Source: a virus. Taken from it: a stretch of 64,000 bases of DNA. The notes under the pieces are model-generated. The model worked only from the letters and a program-made list of their open reading frames with translations. It did no database searches and was not told where the DNA came from. A program made the translations under genes and the position numbers. The DNA is taken from positions 12,111 to 76,110 of IMG/VR virus record IMGVR_UViG_3300025117_000061. One strand, 5' to 3'. Below are positions 52,717 through 64,000 of this stretch, one piece after another (the stretch's first letter is position 1; each line of letters opens with the position of its first letter).

Positions 52717-54977
52717 TGGATCTGTCAAAAGTATCCGATGAAGACCTGATAAGGGCGGCTGGTCTTAGCGTTAAGGAATCGGCCGACATTCTTGCCAGAA
52801 AGCACGGAATACCTAAGCCGTTGGCGCATTCATTGATCGGCCAAGAGTCTGAATGGAACCAGAAGGCAGTATCTCCCAAGGGCGCAATGGGGCTAACGCA
52901 GTTGATGCCGGGCACGGCCAAGGATTTAGGCGTCAATCCAAAAGATCCCATCGACAATCTGAGCGGCGGATTCAGATATCTTAAGGCACAGAAGGACAAG
53001 TTTGGCGGCTGGCACGATGCTCTTTGGGCATACAACGCTGGACCTGAAAGGGTTAAGCAGGGATTCATGCCGGACGAAACCAAGAACTATCTTTCAAGGA
53101 TAGCCGAGAAGGTTTCCAGGTTTGCATCTCCATCCGAGGCTCAAGCGGCTGAGATTCCGAGCGTGGGCAATCTCAATTTGTCGGAACCACAGCCATCAGT
53201 CCAAGGCAATATCGACTATAACACGAGACCAATCGTCAGAAATGCAGACGGGACAACAAGCACTGTGAAGTCCATTAGTTTTGGAACCGATCAGGGCGAA
53301 GTCCTAGTTCCAACAATTTCCGACGATGGCAGGGAAATGTCACCAGAAGAGGCCATCAATCAATACAGGAAAACCGGAAAGCACCTTGGAATTTTCAAAA
53401 CACCGGAGGAGGCAACCAGATACGCAGAACTGCATCATGCTGAGATGGGCCCCCAAGACTTGTCGGGCATGTCAGACGAGGATCTTGCCAAAATAGCAGG
53501 AGTGGATCTGTCGTCCATGTCGGATGAGGATTTGTTCAAGGCTGCCGGGATAGAGGCACCATCATCTACCAACCAAGGAATAGACTCATCCGTAAAGCCA
53601 GATCTAAACCAAAGGATTAAGGAACGATACGGCGCAAACATCCCTGGTGCCCCTACTCAGGAAGAGGTCGATTCCCCAGATCTACAAAAACGTCTTTCTG
53701 TCATGGCCAGGCCAGTCTTGGCTGGTACTGGAGCGGTTATAGGAGGCATGGCCGGAACGGGTGCGGCAGGTCCGGCAGGTGCCCCACTTGGTGCCGGTCT
53801 TGGATACTCAATAGGAAACCGTGCGGCAGATATCGTTGAAGGAAAACCTCGGACTGTCGGAGAGGCATCGGTTCAATCAGTTAAGGACGTTGCCGAGGGC
53901 GGAATGACTGAGATGACCGGAATGGGAGCCATCAAGGTAATACAAAAGGGAGCGGCTGGAGTATCTCAAGTAGTCCGGCAGATTCTTGGAAGAATGAGTG
54001 GAACCGGAACCGGGGCAGTCGAAGAAGCTTTGAAGGGATCTCCGGATTTTACCAAGGCCATGCGAGGTGAGATCAGCGGAGATGATGTGGTGAAAAACGC
54101 AAAGAATGCTCTCTCCGCTATCAAGGATCAGCGTAGCGCGGCGTATCAAGTGAAATTGGAGGAGATATCAAAGAATAATCCACCCATAGACACGAGACCG
54201 GCATGGGGCAAACTAAAAGATCTCATGGATCGGTACAACATAAAAATTAAGCCAGATGGCAGCATTGACACTTCAAGAATAGCCATGGGTTCGTCCGGGA
54301 GAAGAGACATTGCTGACACCATAGAAACTCTCCGTAGCTGGGGCACCAAGCCAGGAGACAACACGGCCATTGGCCTTGATACGCTAAAACGCCAACTGGA
54401 TGATTTTTATTCCGATTCTTCCCAAGCCAGGCAATTTGTAGCAACGGCAAGGAATATGGTCAAGGATCTCATTGTAAAGAATGTTCCGAAGTATGCCGAA
54501 ATGACGGCTGAATATGCCGATGCGACCAAGCTCATAAAAGATGTGGAAGCCGGTTTGATGCTCAGAAAACAAGGGATGAGCGGAAGGATAGTGGCAGATC
54601 AAACGCTTAGGCGATTAGTGTCTTCCATGAGGGATAATTTCGCTCTTAGGCGCGACTTGGTAAACGTTCTTGGAGAAAAAGCCAAGGAAGATTTATCGGG
54701 CCAAATAGCTGGCCATGCCATGAATGCATGGATTCCAAGGGGACTGTCTGGAACTGGACCAGCGATAATCGGAGAAGCCGCTCTCGCCAAGTTTGTAAGT
54801 CCAGCTTTCTGGCCCGTATTGGTGGCAAGCTCTCCACGAGTGCAAGGTGAATTCCTTAGAGCCTACGGGAAAGCATTGGCGGAAACATCCGGCCTGACAG
54901 TTCCTGTTGTCAAAGCCATAGCATATAAATCCGTTATTGACGAGCCGCAAGAATTCTCTCAAGAAGGGAAGCCATGA
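52716..54977 (+). CDS. internal virion protein with lytic transglycosylase (SLT) domain
   Basis: [31 protein letters not shown]. Confidence 0.88.
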
Positions 54978-56857
54978 AATACATCCACCAAGATCACTAT
55001 TGCGATGGGAATGGCCGGGTAATCCAGGGCGGGACCGTGACCGTCTACCTTGCGGGGACCAGCACGCTCGCGAACATTTACTCCTCGGCCGATTCGACCA
55101 CGCCCATTTCCGGAAGCACGGTAACTACCGCCATCGACGGGCTCTATACCTTCTACGTCTCGGCCTTCGATTATGATTACGATCAGGAATTCAAGCTCGT
55201 ATTCTCGAAAACGAACTACTCCACCACCACCTATGACAAGGTTCTGATCAAGACCCCCGTCATTCAGACCTATGTCATTTCTACCAACACCACCGTTTCG
55301 GCAAAAATCAAGGACATCCCCTACGGCGTGCTTATCTCCCCGGCGAACGGGGTTACCATCACTTTCTCGGGCTCCTTCGAAGTCGAGGGCCACAAGATTT
55401 TCGATACGAGCGCCGCCGGGACCGTGTTGATTACCGGAGCCAACAAAATCAAGATGTCTTGGTGGGGGACCAACAGTGTGGCTATGAATAAGTGCTTTAC
55501 GTCCGTGGCCAATCGGGACGGCATCCGGGTCACTTTTGACGAGGCAGCCTATACGGTTGAGAGTACGGTAAACGTTCGTCCTGGAGAGAGAAGATTCTAT
55601 GTCGATGCTCAAATGGCCGCATTCACCGGAAGTCTCGATGACGACTGGTTCGATATCCAGTACGGCGACGCCGGGGTTACAAACAACCGTTTCCTGCTTT
55701 GGGATGGAGGATATTTCATAAACGGTACCATGGGGACATCCTGCTTGTTCAAGATGCTCAAGACGAGACAGTCTAAGATCTGGAACGTTCATGGCGATGG
55801 GTTCTATTACGGGGCATGGGTTGACTACGGGGAAACGGTCAGTATCGAGTACAACATGTTCCTCGGATGTTACTACCCGGTGTATGTGGCTCCAAACGCA
55901 GACTTTAGGACACAGAATCTCACCGTCAGGAAGAACACTTTCACAAGTGGAGCCGGGTACGTTGGGGGGGCCGCCGTTCGCGTGGTGGGGCGGTTCAGGT
56001 CTCTCGATATCATGGACAATACGTTTGATTCGGAATTCTCCGAAGCCACGATGAACATTGATGATGCTCCTATCGGGTCAACCGGGAATCCCGACAGCAC
56101 GGTAACGATCAACTCGAATCACATAGAAGGGTTCAGTGATTCGGCACAAGCCAGAACCGTTCTTAAAATAAATAACGTGGCTGGAATCGGGGTCGGGTGC
56201 CTGGAATATTGCGGGAACATGATGAGCACGACGGCCGCCGACGCTCCATACACTGCAACATATCTCGACCTTGAGAAAGTTCTTTACGCCAACATCGACA
56301 CCAACCCGTTCTATGCAAGTGGCGCCGGCAACACTCTTGTCGGGGTAAATCTCGATGCCGATTGCACCAACATCCACATAGGCCCGGGGAATGACTGGAC
56401 GACCACAAGTGGATGGAATCGAACCACGACGGTGGTTCACGCATGTCCAAGAAATGAAATCACCTTCGGTCATTCCATGCTCCCTCAGCAGAACATCGTT
56501 ACCGGGTACACCGGGGTTGAAAATTTTAGCACTGATGGACCAAGCGCGATGTCCATGGTTACGTTGATCGGGGCATCCAATTATCCTCTCTTCTACGCTC
56601 GCCAATACATCCTGAAAGTAAGAGTCAGGGATAGCGGATCTGCGGGGGCTCCGTGCTCTCTCGTGATAAAGGACGATGATGCGACCGATAACGCCTTTGC
56701 CATCAACATCAACCTGGAGGGGGTGGGGAATGACGTTTGGAAGGAAGTGACCCAACCCGTGACTTGTTCGGCCACGGGCGGGCTTCGAATGACCAGGACT
56801 GCAACCGGGGTTGATACAATGAACATAGAGTTGGTGGTGCTCGGTTATTCGATGTAG
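54974..56857 (+). CDS. tailspike / tail fibre (virion-anchored, beta-helix)
   Basis: N-terminal [25 protein letters not shown] anchor domain; Asn-rich beta-helix coils; no signal peptide. Confidence 0.75.
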
Positions 56858-56888
56858 CCGTGGTATCCCCCTTTCCGAAGGAGACGAA

Positions 56889-57182
56889 ATGGCAAATGCA
56901 ATGACAGGAAGAGTGTGGGTGTTGGATACGGCGGGAACGATCTGGACCGGCCCCATCTTTATTTCGAAAATGGAATATCATCCCAACGCGGCGGACAATG
57001 ATCTTGTCGTCAAGGACACCCGCGGGTTTCCCATTTGGCCACCCATTCGAGCCATAGCCTCATCCGCTGCCCATGAAACAATCGGAATCGAGAAATGGGA
57101 GAACCCCAGTCCGGAAGTTCCTTTCGATGGGCTCGTGCTCACCACTATCGATGGCGGTACGCTTTACGTCACCATAAACTGA
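56889..57182 (+). CDS. small beta-rich tail-associated protein
   Basis: AAGGAG SD; ends FDGLVLTTIDGGTLYV. Confidence 0.65.
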   Translation: MANAMTGRVWVLDTAGTIWTGPIFISKMEYHPNAADNDLVVKDTRGFPIWPPIRAIASSAAHETIGIEKWENPSPEVPFDGLVLTTIDGGTLYVTIN

Positions 57183-57209
57183 TGTAAGGTATTTCAAGGA
57201 GATGATGAT

Positions 57210-59054
57210 ATGCGTTCAAGGGCCGTCTTGTTTTTTGCTCTTCTTTTCCTGGCAATGGCTGGATTTTTTGGGGTAAGTAGCAGTGTTAGTGCCGAAAGAC
57301 TGGGATTCTTGGTTTCGGAGCCTGATGGTAGTCCGTCGAAGGCATATGTGCATTCGGTAACGTTGCCCAACGGTTCAGCGAGTGTAGATGCCGGAATCTT
57401 GACCTTGAACATCAGCGAGGCCGCGGCAAGCATCAACACCGAGACCCTATCAGGCAACATAACCCTCGGGGCCACGGATGAGCGCTCCAAGGCCATCCAG
57501 AACCTCGATCCCAATGGTGCCAATCGCAACGTCACGCTCCCGGCCGAGGCATCGGCGTCCGGTCGGTGGTATCAGGTCAAGAACACCGCGACCATCGGGA
57601 CGGCATTCGACTTGCTGGTTAAGGATGATGCCGCGGCAACCATCGCTACGGTGAGCCCTGGAAGCACGGTTTTAGTATGGTGTGACGGAACTACCTGGAA
57701 TATTTGGCAGGGCCTTCCCTTCAATGCCGATGGTACGTGGGCGAGTGATATGGTGCTGACGACCGGGAACGTGTTTTACGGAGTCGGCAATCTGGCCGTC
57801 TCAACATCGCTTGCATCCCTTGCCGAACCTCCACAAACCACGGCATCTCAAGCCGAAGCCGAAGCAGGGACCGAAGCGGCATTGCGCTCGTTTTCGCCGT
57901 TGAGAATCAAGCAAGCCATTGACGCACTGAGCGGGGCGGCCGCCGGCGCAGCCGAGGTCTATGGCAGCGGGTGGAATGCCGACACAACCATGCCCGAGAA
58001 AAACGATATCTATGATTACCTGCACAGTTTTGACGCGGATGATGACGGAAGTTTGGCGGATGAAACATGGTTTACCGGGCCATTGGCAGCCAAGCAGGAC
58101 GTTTTGGTCTACTCCGAAACGGTGGGTGGTGGGGCTGGAGCACTGGATGCCGTGGATGGAGACGACATCACCGTTAATGACATCGCGTTCGTCTCAAAAA
58201 GTGTCCAGGTAGATTCCGGAACAACGGACGGAACGACGGCATCTAAGCTTGTTGACGCCGGCCAGGACTTCCTGACGACGGTCACGGTTGGGGACGTTGT
58301 CGCCAACACCACGGACGGCACCTACGCTGCGGTGACAGCCATTGACGATGACGGGACGCTTTCTCTCTCCGCTGATATCATGACAACCGGAGAAGCTTAT
58401 ACCATCAGCTCTTGGTGGACATTACAATACCAAGTCACACTAAGCAACAAAGCTGAAAGCGATCCAGATGTGGTGGCCCCGGACACGAATCGGAACAACA
58501 AAACCTGGGAACGTCAAAACTGGTGGAAGAATGGGGTCTTTCAGTTTAACACGTTCAAGATTCCGAGCGATACGGCATCCCCGCCCACGGCCTGTACCGA
58601 GGGACAGGTTTACCGGGAGTCGAACACTGATATCAGCCATATGTGTACGGCAACTGGTAACCCTGGGACGTGGAAGCCGTTTCAAGGCCAGCTTCAAAAA
58701 ATCGCTGTCCTGAATTTTTCAGGAGGCGGGACCGATATTACCGACAACACCAAGTCCGATTCATACATTCCAATCGCTGCAACCGTAGCGGGCTGGACCA
58801 TATCGGCTACCGATGCGGCCGGGTGTGATGCCGTGGTGGATATTTGGAACGATGCTTATGCGAATTTCCCTCCTACTGTAGCGGATCAAATCGCAGCAGC
58901 GGCGCACCCGACCTTGAGCGGGGTTCTTTTTAACAAGGACACCACGCTTACGGGGTGGGATACTTCGATTGCGGCCGATTCATGGATACGAGGGAATTAT
59001 GACAGCGGGACATGCACGGGGACAGTGACAGTCACTCTGTTTGGCGTAATGTAG
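57210..59054 (+). CDS. multidomain tail-fibre-like protein with N-terminal signal peptide
   Basis: MRSRAVLFFALLFLAMAGFFGVSSSVSA; LDPNGANRNVTLP, ASQAEAEAGT, VVDIW..YANFPPTVAD domains seen in phage tail proteins. Confidence 0.7.
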   Translation: MRSRAVLFFALLFLAMAGFFGVSSSVSAERLGFLVSEPDGSPSKAYVHSVTLPNGSASVDAGILTLNISEAAASINTETLSGNITLGATDERSKAIQNLDPNGANRNVTLPAEASASGRWYQVKNTATIGTAFDLLVKDDAAATIATVSPGSTVLVWCDGTTWNIWQGLPFNADGTWASDMVLTTGNVFYGVGNLAVSTSLASLAEPPQTTASQAEAEAGTEAALRSFSPLRIKQAIDALSGAAAGAAEVYGSGWNADTTMPEKNDIYDYLHSFDADDDGSLADETWFTGPLAAKQDVLVYSETVGGGAGALDAVDGDDITVNDIAFVSKSVQVDSGTTDGTTASKLVDAGQDFLTTVTVGDVVANTTDGTYAAVTAIDDDGTLSLSADIMTTGEAYTISSWWTLQYQVTLSNKAESDPDVVAPDTNRNNKTWERQNWWKNGVFQFNTFKIPSDTASPPTACTEGQVYRESNTDISHMCTATGNPGTWKPFQGQLQKIAVLNFSGGGTDITDNTKSDSYIPIAATVAGWTISATDAAGCDAVVDIWNDAYANFPPTVADQIAAAAHPTLSGVLFNKDTTLTGWDTSIAADSWIRGNYDSGTCTGTVTVTLFGVM

Positions 59055-59065
59055 GAGACAAGCAC

Positions 59066-59983
59066 ATGAAGAAATTTGCATTTGCCATATTATTTGCGGT
59101 TCTGTTTTCTGCGTCGAGCGTATATGCCACTACTTGGTACGCACAAGATGGTGCAGGGGCCATGAGTACCCGAACATGGAACGATGCAGCCGGTGGGGGC
59201 GGGAACGCGCTTACTTGGGCTAACCGCTTGGCTGGAGACGTGTTTGTTGCCAACGCACAAACCGGGATAGATATTGACACTGACCCTGGTCTTGGAGCTG
59301 GTCAGAACGTCACTATTTCCACGGCCACCAGCGGTGGTGGGTTCACCTATGCGACCGCCACGAATCTCACCATGAACATGAATGTGCAAGGTGGAACCAG
59401 TATTTGTCTTTCTATCACAGGGTCCACGGGTGGTGGGACCATAGTCGGCACCGTAACCGGAGGATCGGTTAATCTTTGCCATGGAGTTTCCGATACCCAT
59501 ACGGTTGTGACTATAAACATTATAGGGAATATTACTGGTGGAGGGAACGGCGCGGCGCGTGGATATTACACTACCGGCGCAGCCTCCATCGTGGCAATTA
59601 CCGGGAACGCTATAGCAGCCACAGCTTCAGGAATTGAAAATTCTGGAACAGGTGGATGGACTATCACCGGCAATTGTTTAGGTCACGATACTACGGCCAA
59701 TGCCGGATGCTTTGCTTCTGGGTCTGGCGGCATTACCGTCACGGGGAATATCGTCAACGGTAAGCGAGGATCGGGGGCTACTGGAGCCATTTATTTTACA
59801 CCAGCGGCGACAAACTATGTTCTGTATCCCAAAAATACATCCTATTCGTTGGGAACAGTGAACGCCAATGCCACAGAGATGCCTGCAGATCCAGGAGTTG
59901 TGAACGTGTTGACCGGGACGACATACGGTACATTCACGGGCACGTTGAGCGCAAGCGGAGTGGCGGGGACCTATGCGTACTAG
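59066..59983 (+). CDS. Gly/Thr-rich beta-solenoid protein with signal peptide
   Basis: MKKFAFAILFAVLFSASSVYA; repeated xITGNxxG; C-terminal P..NV..GTTYG..TGTL. Confidence 0.7.
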   Translation: MKKFAFAILFAVLFSASSVYATTWYAQDGAGAMSTRTWNDAAGGGGNALTWANRLAGDVFVANAQTGIDIDTDPGLGAGQNVTISTATSGGGFTYATATNLTMNMNVQGGTSICLSITGSTGGGTIVGTVTGGSVNLCHGVSDTHTVVTINIIGNITGGGNGAARGYYTTGAASIVAITGNAIAATASGIENSGTGGWTITGNCLGHDTTANAGCFASGSGGITVTGNIVNGKRGSGATGAIYFTPAATNYVLYPKNTSYSLGTVNANATEMPADPGVVNVLTGTTYGTFTGTLSASGVAGTYAY

Positions 59984-62081
59984 ATTGCTTATCGTCTCAT
60001 TTTTTGTCCTATGTCCCCATGTTTTGGCATGGGCATACACTCCACCCATTGGAATACCAGATCCAGGCTCTTGGGGAAGTATTCATCCAATTGATTCTTT
60101 AGCACCAGATACGAATGTTAAGTGCTCATCTTGGCCGTCCGGCGAGTCGCCTGGCTGCTACTATATCGAGGCGAGCCACCTAGATTGCACCGACAGCGGA
60201 AACACATATGGCTATCCCACTCACCCACGTTGCTCAATCCCTGGAGGGACGTTCGGCCCTGGGTCTTATATGGAAATTCAAGGAACTATGGCTTATTCCA
60301 ATGTATATACTCAAACGTGGAATTGCATTGAAGCGGACCCGTGTTGGATTAGAGGTACGTCGGAAGTTAAAGCATACATAACTGGTGAAATGCGATTGAC
60401 AAATAGTGAATATTTATTAATGGAAAACATGGACTTTGATGGGGGCGCAGGTGCAGCCATATCAATTACAGGAAACGGAAATAATATAATAGTAAGAAAC
60501 AGCGACATAAAGAATAGAACGTATCCTGGGGTGCGATTATCTACCATTGGAATTACACCAGATCTAAATGCTACAATAAGCGATGTAGTAATCTACAATG
60601 TCAACTTTCAAAATAACGGAGACTGGCAAGCTACAGGTGATGAGGATTTTACGGGTATCACACCAAATACTTGGGGCCGCAATACGACTACGTTTCTGCA
60701 CCATGTTTGGATATTGAATTGTAATTGGTTCCGGCAAGGAGGTAGTGGCGTAATCATCAATGGGGGACTATACTATGGATCTCATGACAGCCTCCATCAT
60801 ATCTACGTTGGGAGATGTACGGGAAATCAAAACAACCAAGCTCCTGTGTTCGTGAAACAATCGAGTGATGTGATTCTTAGCGAGAACATATTCCACGATC
60901 ATCGATCACACGATACTCATGCACCAGGGGATTGTGCAGGTGCTCAGTATAATCCTAAAAACCTATGGGTGATTTACAACAAGTTCTATGACGCGAATTA
61001 CGGTTTCAGGAATTCGGATAATAGCACGGTAGATAGTGAGGGGGTAACCCACGATTGGTATAGGGATCATTCGATTTATATTATAGGAAACATAATACAT
61101 AATATACATCCAGAGATAAGAAACCCATCTTCTCCCACACGTCAAGGTGTAGCGTTGGCTATGTGGCAAGGAAATAATAATAAATACATAATTGATAATA
61201 CTATATATGACGTGGATGGAGGAATACTAATATATCAAAAAAGTGCTGGTAGCTATGCGTGGATTTACGGAAATATAGTTTCTACTATATATTCTTTGGA
61301 TTGGCAATTTCAAAAATCGTACAACTTCGGAAACGGTAATTGGTGGGCAGATTATAATATATTTTATGATGCTTCCATCGGCACGAGGCTGCATTATGAC
61401 GGAAATACAATCAACGGTATAGACAATTTTGTATCCGCAAGTGGGCAATGTATTGACTGTTTGGATATTGATCCTGAATTCATCATGCCTGGTAGTGATT
61501 TCACGCCTCAATCAGGAAGTGGGGCAATAGGCGCAAATATTGAATCGTCCGTTTATGATACTTTCTTTGGATTGTATGGGCTCTCAATAAAAATAGATCG
61601 GGCCGGAACCGTTCGTCCACAGAATACAACATGGGATATTGGAGCGTATGAATACACTACGGGGGAGACCGATACCACTGATCCAGTCCTTTCCGCCCTC
61701 ATTCCCTCCGGCGCTCAGTCATGCTCGTCCAATCCACGCAACGTCACATTATCCCTCACATGCACCGATGCGGTTGGTTGTACGGCATGTAAGGCTGATA
61801 CGGCAGATGTGGACATAGACTCCATGGCGATTACGCTTACGCAGGGCGGAACCACCTGGAGCGGATCAACCGGGAACTTGGCGTGTGGAGCATCGTACAC
61901 CTACTACGGGAAATGCGAGGACGCCGCCGACAACGAAAGCGCCGCATCGGAGTGGAATTTCAGCATCGCCGCTGCCGTAGCCGCTGCCATCGGTGGGGCC
62001 GGGCTTGATTCCTTGATAGGACCGATTGGTGGGGCGGGGCTTGATTCAACGGTCGGCGCTATTGGTGGGATGGGGAGATAG
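59973..62081 (+). CDS. right-handed beta-helix (pectin-lyase-like) protein with signal peptide
   Basis: MRTRLLIVSFFVLCPHVLAWA; IxGNIIHN/IIDNTIYD coils; DPEF...DF...S.AI...D..G..RP...WDIGAYE cap. Confidence 0.75.
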   Translation: MRTRLLIVSFFVLCPHVLAWAYTPPIGIPDPGSWGSIHPIDSLAPDTNVKCSSWPSGESPGCYYIEASHLDCTDSGNTYGYPTHPRCSIPGGTFGPGSYMEIQGTMAYSNVYTQTWNCIEADPCWIRGTSEVKAYITGEMRLTNSEYLLMENMDFDGGAGAAISITGNGNNIIVRNSDIKNRTYPGVRLSTIGITPDLNATISDVVIYNVNFQNNGDWQATGDEDFTGITPNTWGRNTTTFLHHVWILNCNWFRQGGSGVIINGGLYYGSHDSLHHIYVGRCTGNQNNQAPVFVKQSSDVILSENIFHDHRSHDTHAPGDCAGAQYNPKNLWVIYNKFYDANYGFRNSDNSTVDSEGVTHDWYRDHSIYIIGNIIHNIHPEIRNPSSPTRQGVALAMWQGNNNKYIIDNTIYDVDGGILIYQKSAGSYAWIYGNIVSTIYSLDWQFQKSYNFGNGNWWADYNIFYDASIGTRLHYDGNTINGIDNFVSASGQCIDCLDIDPEFIMPGSDFTPQSGSGAIGANIESSVYDTFFGLYGLSIKIDRAGTVRPQNTTWDIGAYEYTTGETDTTDPVLSALIPSGAQSCSSNPRNVTLSLTCTDAVGCTACKADTADVDIDSMAITLTQGGTTWSGSTGNLACGASYTYYGKCEDAADNESAASEWNFSIAAAVAAAIGGAGLDSLIGPIGGAGLDSTVGAIGGMGR

Positions 62082-62131
62082 TAGATAGAATGAATTTCAA
62101 GGAATTTCAAATATCACACGAAAGGATACCG

Positions 62132-63958
62132 ATGAAAAGAATCACTACTGCCGTTTTTATCTTTTTGACATTCCTCTTTTCAGTTCTCCCCTTCCAAGCA
62201 TCAGCGGTTACCTTCGTCCCGGCAAATGGATCGTCGGAGCTGTCGAACATGTACCTGGGTGAAGGTTACGCTCAGGTAGACACCGAGGCCGAGCTTGCTG
62301 CGGCGATAACGGCAGTGACACCCCGCATTCTGGCACGGGTGGATATCACCTTCACGGGGCCTCACACACTGGCGGCTGGTCAGGTCTACGCCGCCATCCC
62401 CGGGGCGGTCGTCACCACGGCGGGGAACACGTTTGACCTGTCAGCCGGGCATTTAGAGGACAACGGCGGGCAGATGTTTGACGCCGGAGATGGGGAGATC
62501 CTACTTCCAGATGTCTGCGTTGAGGTGCATCCCTATTGGTGGGGCATTACGGGCACCAACGACGAAATTGCCATCAATAAAGCCATGACCGCAGCCGAGC
62601 CTACGGTTAAAGCTATATCTCCCGTGGACAGCCAGTGGGACTATAGTGATTCTGGAAAAGTAGTAATTATGGCGCCAGAATATATTACATCTGGGACGAT
62701 AGAAATTCCTGCCCATGTTACGGTCAGGGGAACAGGGCCGAGAGGTTCTGTTATTACATCAGACTATGACGGGCAAGTGGTAAGGAGCAAGCTTACCACT
62801 TCAATGTATAATTATACGGGTATACGAATTGAAAACATTAAGATATGGGGCGACAAAACGAAAGCTAACCAGGTTGGATTAGATCTACTGCGGATGGATG
62901 AAGGTAAAATATCGACCGTTACTGTCGAAAACTGTGGATCACATGGGATAATATTGCGTGAATGTATCGGAAGTGAAATTGAGGCCTCATCCAAGGGAAA
63001 CGGTGGGGATGGAATATTAATAACCGAAGGCATTAATAGCTGGACAGATCCTACTAATGATAATTATCCATCCAATGGGAATAGAATTCGAGGATATTTC
63101 TCTAGGAACGACGGAGCTGGAATCCATATTTATGACTCCAACGGAAACGTTGTATCAGGTGTAAGTGAATATAATTACTTTGCTAGCGGTGACAATGTAG
63201 GATATAACGTGCTTTTCGATGGAAGTAATGGCAGTTACAACACTATAGAAAACATGTGGACGGAAGGTTGGGTGCAAGCTCATATCTACCATGACAGTCC
63301 TAACGGAAATAATAGAGCCGTTAATTGCCATTTCATATCTAATGGAGCAACTGGGAAGGTGGATCGAGCCGTAATTTCCGCTCAAGGAAAAATGATAATC
63401 GAAAACCCTATCATGCAGCAAAGTCCATTCAAGACTATAAACAGTAGCAATTCCCCTTTTAGGGTTGTTAAGGCAACCACGGGTAAGATTATTTTGGTCG
63501 GCGGGCATATATACCTTAGTCCGACAACTGGCTCCTTTGAGAATGCCGTCGAGGACGAAAACGGCAATCACACGGGACTCGAAAACTATGCCACCGTGTG
63601 GAGTTCTAATTCTGGGACGTGGTATGGTTTAGGAGGTGAATATCGGTATATGACCACTGGGAGCATAGCCAATAGATGGTACGGAGGCACTGGTGGCGCG
63701 TGGGACGCCCAACCATTCATGCAGATTGATAATACATTCGGGCTGCAGATGGGAGCGGGTGGAGCCACGGCGTTGGACGTAGGAATAAAACGTGTTGCGG
63801 CAAATGTCTTGGGGTTGGCGTCTGGTGATGGTTTGGGTGTCGGCAATTCAGTCGCCAACACAAATACTCCGTCCGGAGCCACGGCTAGAGCTGTCCCAAT
63901 TTACGATGAATCCGGAACGCTCCTTGGATATATTCCGGTGTATGCCGTCCAATGGTGA
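62132..63958 (+). CDS. tailspike-like beta-helix protein with signal peptide
   Basis: MKRITTAVFIFLTFLFSVLPFQASA; PYWWG...D..AINKA...VTVRG.G pectate-lyase-3-like start; C-terminal PIYDESGTLLGYIPVY. Confidence 0.75.
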   Translation: MKRITTAVFIFLTFLFSVLPFQASAVTFVPANGSSELSNMYLGEGYAQVDTEAELAAAITAVTPRILARVDITFTGPHTLAAGQVYAAIPGAVVTTAGNTFDLSAGHLEDNGGQMFDAGDGEILLPDVCVEVHPYWWGITGTNDEIAINKAMTAAEPTVKAISPVDSQWDYSDSGKVVIMAPEYITSGTIEIPAHVTVRGTGPRGSVITSDYDGQVVRSKLTTSMYNYTGIRIENIKIWGDKTKANQVGLDLLRMDEGKISTVTVENCGSHGIILRECIGSEIEASSKGNGGDGILITEGINSWTDPTNDNYPSNGNRIRGYFSRNDGAGIHIYDSNGNVVSGVSEYNYFASGDNVGYNVLFDGSNGSYNTIENMWTEGWVQAHIYHDSPNGNNRAVNCHFISNGATGKVDRAVISAQGKMIIENPIMQQSPFKTINSSNSPFRVVKATTGKIILVGGHIYLSPTTGSFENAVEDENGNHTGLENYATVWSSNSGTWYGLGGEYRYMTTGSIANRWYGGTGGAWDAQPFMQIDNTFGLQMGAGGATALDVGIKRVAANVLGLASGDGLGVGNSVANTNTPSGATARAVPIYDESGTLLGYIPVYAVQW

Positions 63959-64000
63959 TGCATCTCGGGGCATCCGGCCAACCCGGAGCCCCACCCTTTA

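Follow-up and report, generated by a model that had tools for sequence, protein, structure and literature searches.

Predicted Sec signal peptides on four spike- and fibre-like proteins at the end of a phage late operon

Results

We analysed a 64,000-nucleotide stretch of DNA from a groundwater phage that is uncultured (the window; bases 12111-76110 of the 76,110-bp IMG/VR record IMGVR_UViG_3300025117_000061, the window ending where the record ends), in which four consecutive plus-strand genes encode spike- and fibre-like proteins that all begin with predicted Sec signal peptides. The genes, named here by their start positions in the window, encode a fibre-like protein of 614 aa (57210-59054), a predicted small right-handed beta-helix protein of 305 aa (59066-59983), a beta-helix protein of 702 aa that belongs to a bacterial exported family (59973-62081) and a probable beta-helix protein of pectate-lyase type of 608 aa (62132-63958). 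Together they are the tail end of a late structural operon lying on the same strand. With about even confidence, we read their products as exported accessory proteins, glycan-active and separate from the virion, that would act on the host envelope, the virion itself using a signal-less spike encoded at 54974.

Signal peptides of the four gene products

Each product starts with one or two basic residues, a hydrophobic core of 12-18 residues and small residues at positions -3 and -1 of the putative cleavage site, in keeping with the layout of a precursor of the general secretory (Sec) pathway and signal peptidase I (basic n-region, h-region of about 10-18 residues, small residues at -3/-1). The predicted signal peptides and first mature residues, separated by a slash, are MRSRAVLFFALLFLAMAGFFGVSSSVSA/ERLG for 57210 (signal-coding positions 57210-57293), MKKFAFAILFAVLFSASSVYA/TTWY for 59066 (59066-59128), MRTRLLIVSFFVLCPHVLAWA/YTPP for 59973 (59973-60035) and MKRITTAVFIFLTFLFSVLPFQASA/VTFV for 62132 (62132-62206). 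Shine-Dalgarno (SD) sequences, AGGAG or AAGGA, lie 6-8 nt before 57210, 59066 and 62132; the start of 59973, which overlaps the stop of the upstream gene, has the weaker GGAG. An earlier note, made from the DNA letters, had described the four open reading frames (ORFs) with these signals and had ranked the 59973 start as the weakest, and on both counts its description is borne out.

A crude scan of hydrophobicity, charge and -3/-1 residues was applied to about 100 non-overlapping ORFs of the whole 76-kb record. Such N-termini were confined to the four genes and one doubtful short ORF of the early region; three of the genes were flagged outright, and the signal of 59066 was visible from its SD-backed Met, not from a longer upstream ORF. 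None of the capsid, portal, internal and spike proteins of the record was flagged, and the confinement of the signals to these four genes is far from chance. The homologues provide the stronger evidence: their signal sequences diverge, yet they remain recognisable as signals and lead into a conserved mature start, and they back the exact cleavage sites of 59973 and 59066. Conservation of the signals among homologues, which the earlier note had proposed to check, is supported in the families of 59973, 59066 and 57210, and two of nine relatives of 62132 also have a signal; the counts are given below. Taken together, the four N-termini are predicted to be genuine signals of the Sec/signal peptidase I type.

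The bacterial exported family of 59973

Among 87 relatives of 59973, 70 carry the motif [YW]-x-P-P-x-G-I-P within their first 80 residues; a hydrophobic leader precedes the motif in 67 of these 70, and the residue just before it is Ala in 58. Because leader and Ala recur in this way, the predicted AWA/YTPP cleavage appears to be a property of the family, whose invariant mature start, YTPPIGIPDP, reads YTPPIGIPDPG in the window. The bacterial contigs that carry members reach 701 kb, some members bearing dockerin, type IX secretion system (T9SS), fn3, PKD or Calx-beta domains, and the GTDB genomes scanned hold 38 loci, which belong to Chromatiales together with other Gammaproteobacteria (both closest, 37-41%), Desulfobulbaceae, Acidobacteriota, Planctomycetota, Chloroflexota and others. 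At three loci (L005, L007 and L009) the homologue lies inside an exopolysaccharide locus; its Pfam-assigned neighbours in L009 are a flippase-type protein, an adenosine phosphosulfate (APS) kinase, a polysaccharide deacetylase, a sulfotransferase, three GT4 glycosyltransferases, the exosortase EpsH and a heparinase II/III-like protein. The combination of a predicted exported beta-helix with a polysaccharide locus is found in these three bacterial homologues, and the phage copy lies in a phage operon. On sequence grounds, 59973 is best regarded as a phage-borne member of a bacterial exported beta-helix family kept in exopolysaccharide loci. Two tandem family paralogues with nearly identical signals and N-termini were seen at L005:6124-9626, in a Chromatiales metagenome-assembled genome (MAG), where they adjoin a membrane protein that, as a guess from sequence, is O-antigen-ligase-like.

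The AlphaFold model of 59973 is a right-handed beta-helix over about residues 60-560 (predicted local distance difference test (pLDDT) 81.6), followed by a poorly predicted, Cys-rich C-terminal extension (residues 565-702). Solved structures that match it best are those of PL6 alginate lyases, GH136 lacto-N-biosidases, RbmB (a Vibrio matrix lyase), Pel9A, AlgE4, the phage HK620 spike and the periplasmic depolymerase VexL; the matches to PL6, RbmB, AlgE4 and VexL are generic (template modelling (TM) scores 0.2-0.5). Among viral models, 59973 matches phage beta-helix proteins. The C-terminal 140 residues (window 61665-62081), consisting of a Cys-rich segment and a tandem AIGGAGLDS-like tail, are missing in most of the shorter homologues (about 550-620 aa). 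The mature product does have the 17 Cys residues counted in the earlier note, which had taken them as a sign of disulfide folding outside the cytoplasm; however, signal-less virion proteins of the same phage have 10-15 Cys, and no column of the family alignment is an invariant or nearly invariant Cys, so this argument was dropped as uninformative.

Viral copies of the family were found with the alignment as query, a scan of viral contigs with 59973 as single protein having given no match. One viral contig (L004) encodes a signal-less 534-aa protein that starts M-PYSPPIGIP, at the mature residue, and directly follows capsid-type genes; in another (L003), the 59973-type domain comes after about 300 N-terminal residues of a signal-less protein of 1012 aa.

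Paired forms in the family of 59066

The model of 59066 is a compact right-handed beta-helix (pLDDT 92), and its structural matches are of a generic beta-helix kind (Z 11-14). An exhaustive search yielded 318 representatives of the family, and the signal counts rest on the best 150 of them: 94 have a signal followed by a W-Y-A motif, 30 have no signal, their start M-(T/A)-TWYAQ coinciding exactly with the mature N-terminus predicted for 59066 (TTWYAQ in the window), and the remaining 26 include many short, fragment-like sequences. The signal-bearing members are about 300-350 aa long and end in a Gly-rich linker with an aromatic tail (for example GGGAWAF or GGGAWGF), the window's copy ending in TYAY (59930-59983); the signal-less members lack the aromatic tail and reach 500-860 aa. 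Across signal-bearing members the tail follows the pattern [AS][WY][AGS][FYW]. Presumably it resembles the aromatic C-terminal ends of outer-membrane proteins, and it could, judging by its sequence, serve as a docking or sorting tag.

No contig with a signal-bearing member of the 59066 family is longer than 71 kb. A search of five MAGs holding 59973 homologues gave no member of the family, and neither did one of 400 genomes sampled from the class to which G001, a Chromatiales MAG, belongs (own-record control positive); a metagenome scan returned only three short contigs with no useful context. The family alignment (A2) was too diverse for a pattern scan. The family is probably phage-borne.

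Mosaic relatives of 57210

The predicted layout of 57210 comprises the signal, a phage-type N-domain, a fibre motif (ASQAEAEAGT...SPLRIKQAI), a GTTDGTTASKLVD module and a C-terminal phrog_35197 domain. The ASQAEAEAGT element, called a repeat in the earlier note, occurs once and is a motif. The closest relatives, P0002, P0003 and P0004 (54-76% identity over the shared part), and an 82%-identical gene on a different viral contig (L002:9881) all have different, equally typical signals, for example MYKKILLILFLCFTFVNPVYS/E and MKRTIALLAILMLAASGAWA/L. More distant matches have in common only the GTTDGTTASKLVD...NTTD...ADIMTTGE module, which lies inside signal-less phage tail proteins, one of them also bearing tail-sheath domains. 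In the ESM Atlas, the segment of residues 29-210 groups with small proteins of phages. A tblastn search of cultured-phage records with 57210 gave no match, nor did the mature N-module in the viral contigs scanned.

In two groundwater viral contigs, signal-bearing proteins (L045:927-1895 and L046:994-3987) can be aligned with 57210 over its first ~70-95 residues, a span that covers the signal and the mature start LVSEPDGSPS, and the L046 protein additionally has the fibre motif and the N-domain of 62132. Because these proteins match signal and N-module, and L046 adds the fibre motif and the 62132 N-domain, the 57210 family appears to be a mosaic of a conserved signal-plus-N-module and shuffled distal parts. 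Two observations on these contigs are added here. At L002:6859-9868, directly upstream of the signal-bearing fibre gene, lie a gene for a 130-aa signal-bearing protein, a methyltransferase-like gene and two possible glycosyltransferase genes (guesses from sequence). In groundwater phages, L045:9530-13941 and L047:9965-12175 encode signal-bearing proteins of 736-1035 aa, their genes flanked by the major capsid gene on one side and virion genes (phrog_437, phrog_511) on the other; one of these signal-bearing proteins has a sub-threshold match to the archaeal disaggregatase repeat.

The pectate-lyase-type body of 62132

Over 451 aligned positions, the spike-like body of 62132 (residues 119-547) shares 40% identity with the signal-less phage spike P0106; the N-terminus of P0106 resembles that of the signal-less spike 54974, not that of 62132. 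Among nine relatives, two (P0107 and P0114) have a signal, P0114 ending in a Peptidase_S74 fibre chaperone domain, and P0108, P0109 and P0113, each a 'pectate lyase superfamily protein' of an uncultured Caudovirales phage, are without one. The N-domain of 62132 (residues about 49-138) is common to other signal-bearing phage proteins, and the families of both 57210 and 62132 are phage-borne. A sub-threshold Beta_helix match and homologues with PF12708 suggest the fold of 62132; at least two of the four proteins (59973 and 59066) are thus modelled as beta-helices, and 62132 is probably a third.

Strain variation was seen at this gene. In the region of window positions 62117-62480, run X5 has a variant contig whose signal-coding part of 62132 (62164-62187) differs by numerous substitutions and by small deletions, with loose ends at 62117, 62436 and 62479; run X7 has loose ends at 62435 and 62481. 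These variants suggest strain-level exchange of the N-terminal module.

Phage origin of the block

The stretch is present in groundwater and soil metagenomes of five studies. Logan contigs bridge positions 53089-58955 (run X1) and 55019-57693 (run X4, from another study), and depth is even across the spike and the four-gene block. Bases 7-132 of the record are identical to its last 126 bases (window 63875-64000), only the first 6 bases differing, which points to a genome that is either circular or terminally redundant, the early region at the record start coming after 62132. This overlap looks like the k-mer overlap of a circular assembly with a variant branch, the two versions of the 62132 C-terminus reading AGGATARAV and TPSGATARAV. 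No integrase, tyrosine or serine recombinase or resolvase was found (controls positive), and by its sequence the phage looks virulent.

Wrong starts, a chimeric assembly or host DNA flanking a prophage would each make the signals an artefact, and two facts speak for such an explanation: IMG/VR classes the record as linear and 69% complete, and 59973 has many bacterial homologues. It is largely refuted, and we consider it highly improbable. The SD-backed starts yield the signals and the homologue alignments cover them, which speaks against the concern, raised in the earlier note, that the true starts lie after the hydrophobic segments. Because the spike-to-57210 junction is bridged by contigs from two studies at even depth, the record ends overlap and no recombinase was found, a host flank or chimera is very unlikely, and the note's second concern, that the block is flanking host DNA, is answered as well; the families of 57210 and 62132, moreover, are phage-borne.

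The late operon and the signal-less spike 54974

Upstream of the four genes, on the same strand, the late operon encodes a terminase (34524), a capsid-like protein (41823), a 1092-aa virion protein (46318) and Gly-rich proteins, followed by a 753-aa internal-virion-type protein with an SLT transglycosylase domain (52716) and the tailspike 54974 (54974-56857, plus strand). A small plus-strand ORF for a 97-aa product (56889-57182) precedes 57210, and the successive spacings from this ORF through 57210, 59066, 59973 and 62132 are +27, +11, -11 and +50 bases. A promoter and terminator scan gave no signal above shuffled background, no tRNA was found, and there was no RNA dataset among the sequencing runs listed as holding the stretch.

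The 627-aa product of 54974 has a weak Pfam Beta_helix match and lacks a hydrophobic N-terminus, as the earlier note had said of its signal; the 'virion-anchor domain' that the note assigned to it is inferred only from a 57-residue similarity of residues 11-67 to the N-terminus of P0106. This anchor-like N-terminus is confined to 54974 and P0106, and in the four genes a signal peptide takes its place. Its sequence makes 54974 the likely cytoplasm-assembled receptor-binding protein of the virion. No paralogy was found between 54974 and the four exported genes, which leaves the idea of a paired exported copy of a virion enzyme unsupported. The 97-aa product of 56889 is signal-less, has no Pfam or PHROG match and shows no similarity to the small ORFs adjoining homologues in L002 or L050; as a guess, it may be an adaptor or assembly helper.

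Discussion

From the genes, their conserved signals, the folds, the phage origin of the block and the bacterial context of the 59973 family, we infer the following course of export and cleavage, with its substrate, timing and benefit. Each product would be made as a precursor with a cleavable Sec signal and moved across the host inner membrane, signal peptidase I would trim it at SVSA/E, VYA/T, AWA/Y or ASA/V, and the mature proteins would fold in the periplasm or envelope. Three right-handed beta-helices of a glycan-cutting or glycan-binding kind and one fibre-like protein would form an exported accessory cassette that has left the cytoplasm and acts on the capsule, exopolysaccharide or O-antigen of the very cell that is infected. 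Such a cassette would likely strip or block receptors on that cell and its debris and loosen the matrix, with less trapping of progeny or less superinfection as the result; the virion itself would use the signal-less spike 54974.

The closest functional analogue of such an exported set is WceF of Pantoea stewartii, a tailspike-like trimer with an export signal that is encoded in the stewartan cluster and trims the cell's own polymer (PMC7949094). Like AlgG, VexL and RbmB, it is an exported right-handed beta-helix in an exopolysaccharide cluster, which is the setting of the bacterial members of the 59973 family. It differs in having a twin-arginine translocation (Tat) signal instead of the Sec type of that family, no sequence relationship was found (Foldseek E of about 7, for the 59066 model only), and the 59973 gene lies in a phage late operon, not in an exopolysaccharide locus.

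Tailspikes and depolymerases of phages (P22, HK620, the CBA120 tailspike proteins, Klebsiella phages) share with the four proteins the beta-helix bodies, 62132 being 40% identical to a signal-less spike, and the placement after internal-virion and spike genes. Canonical spikes have an N-terminal virion-binding domain and no signal peptide and assemble in the cytoplasm, and a free depolymerase is normally released through lysis, not through Sec; no such N-terminal virion anchor was found in the four proteins. Phage late proteins that reach the envelope through host Sec before lysis are established in the form of Sec-exported and signal-arrest-release (SAR) endolysins such as Lys44 of fOg44 (PMC6116005); these are peptidoglycan hydrolases of the lysis cassette, whereas the four proteins have no muralytic domain. 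Genes with signal peptides in Porphyromonas phages (Matrishin et al. 2023, PMC10367356) and the envelope proteins that huge phages export (bioRxiv 10.64898/2026.10.24.761521) have been read as host-envelope modifiers; the proteins named in these reports are capsid, spanin and unknown proteins, sortase substrates and outer-membrane proteins, with no spikes or fibres among them.

The earlier note had proposed two routes, periplasmic maturation with docking onto virions, or secretion or display for action on surface glycans. The data leave the choice undecided and lean to the second, because 59973 is of the bacterial exported type with no recognisable virion anchor, and because 54974 is signal-less and the virion-type spikes of these families in other phages have dropped the signal. 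An accessory role is favoured on much the same grounds, since 59973 retains the full layout of an exported enzyme of bacterial exopolysaccharide loci, phages that use these families in virion-type architectures have lost the signal, and this phage owns a normal signal-less spike. Several points weigh against it. No enzyme activity, catalytic residue or substrate is assigned to the four proteins, and the giant signal-bearing proteins of related contigs sit between the capsid gene and virion genes. The pattern of 57210, in which signal and first mature residues are conserved and distal modules are shuffled, looks like that of an attachment module, and the protein resembles a fibre, not an enzyme. 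Sec on its own delivers proteins no further than the periplasm of a diderm host, which leaves the route to an external polysaccharide unexplained unless lysis provides one, and leaves unexplained why export is needed when lysis follows.

We consider a competing explanation unlikely, though less so than the other alternatives: the four proteins would be exported virion appendages that fold in the periplasm and dock, through their conserved mature N-terminal modules, onto DNA-filled tailed particles when the inner membrane is breached in lysis. The signal and mature start of 57210 recur in signal-bearing proteins of other phages with shuffled distal parts, as in a fibre anchor, and its N-domain clusters with phage proteins; signal-bearing proteins occur inside the structural modules of related contigs, and one (P0114) ends in a fibre chaperone domain; the 62132 body and the 59973 and 59066 families act as signal-less spike-type proteins in other phages. 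Yet the phage already owns a signal-less spike, no docking partner was found, and 59973 has a plain bacterial architecture to which only a C-terminal extension is added, with no recognisable virion anchor. In the literature searched, spikes or fibres of phages with Sec signals were not described, and no precedent in print was found. That a two-compartment assembly of Sec export, periplasmic maturation and joining at lysis is common to several groundwater and soil phage lineages seems similarly doubtful.

Somewhat less probable still is that the proteins stay on the envelope of the infected cell as adhesins or receptor blockers, held there by the signal itself, left uncleaved as an anchor, by a partner at the surface that binds the conserved N-domain, or by the aromatic tail at the C-terminus, with superinfection exclusion or cell-cell contact as the effect. 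A precedent on a cell's own surface exists in the mosaic adhesive trimer (MAT) fibres of Bdellovibrio bacteriovorus, which have a signal peptide, a conserved beta-rich N-terminal domain of about 130 aa and swappable, variable, trimeric distal tips, some with an S74 chaperone (Caulton et al. 2024, PMC10769870). The layout of signal, conserved N-domain and variable distal modules recurs in 57210, L045 and L046; the likeness is one of architecture, and the genes for MAT fibres sit on the chromosome of a predatory bacterium, which displays the fibres on itself. Also in favour of display are the Gly-rich linker and tail (such as GGGAWAF or TYAY), present in signal-bearing 59066 members and missing in signal-less ones, and a proposal that huge phages encode systems for surface display (bioRxiv 10.64898/2026.10.24.761521). 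However, all four proteins have good -3/-1 cleavage sites, and the first residue of signal-less family forms is precisely the one at which the mature protein is predicted to begin, a point in favour of cleavage; no lipobox, LPXTG or beta-barrel anchor motif was seen in the four proteins, and the virulent look of the record makes long-term display unlikely.

The accepted view of spikes and depolymerases of tailed phages is that they are cytoplasmic and that lysis is their only way out of the cell. The exported spike- and fibre-like proteins described here would be a variant of phage depolymerases of which no published description was found. The signal-bearing forms show that pipelines that tag every beta-helix gene beside tail genes as a 'tailspike' can mislead. 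If the exported forms strip or mask receptors on the infected cell, they would be to phages what receptor-destroying enzymes are elsewhere, and would control superinfection or progeny loss in a new way; if they reach the virion, textbook assembly would need a periplasmic step. Either way, the signal-bearing forms are a ready source of secretion-competent depolymerases. Because three protein families each have signal-bearing as well as signal-less forms, the latter starting at the exact predicted cleavage site in two of the families, phages and bacteria appear to swap glycan-active modules between an exported life and a virion life.

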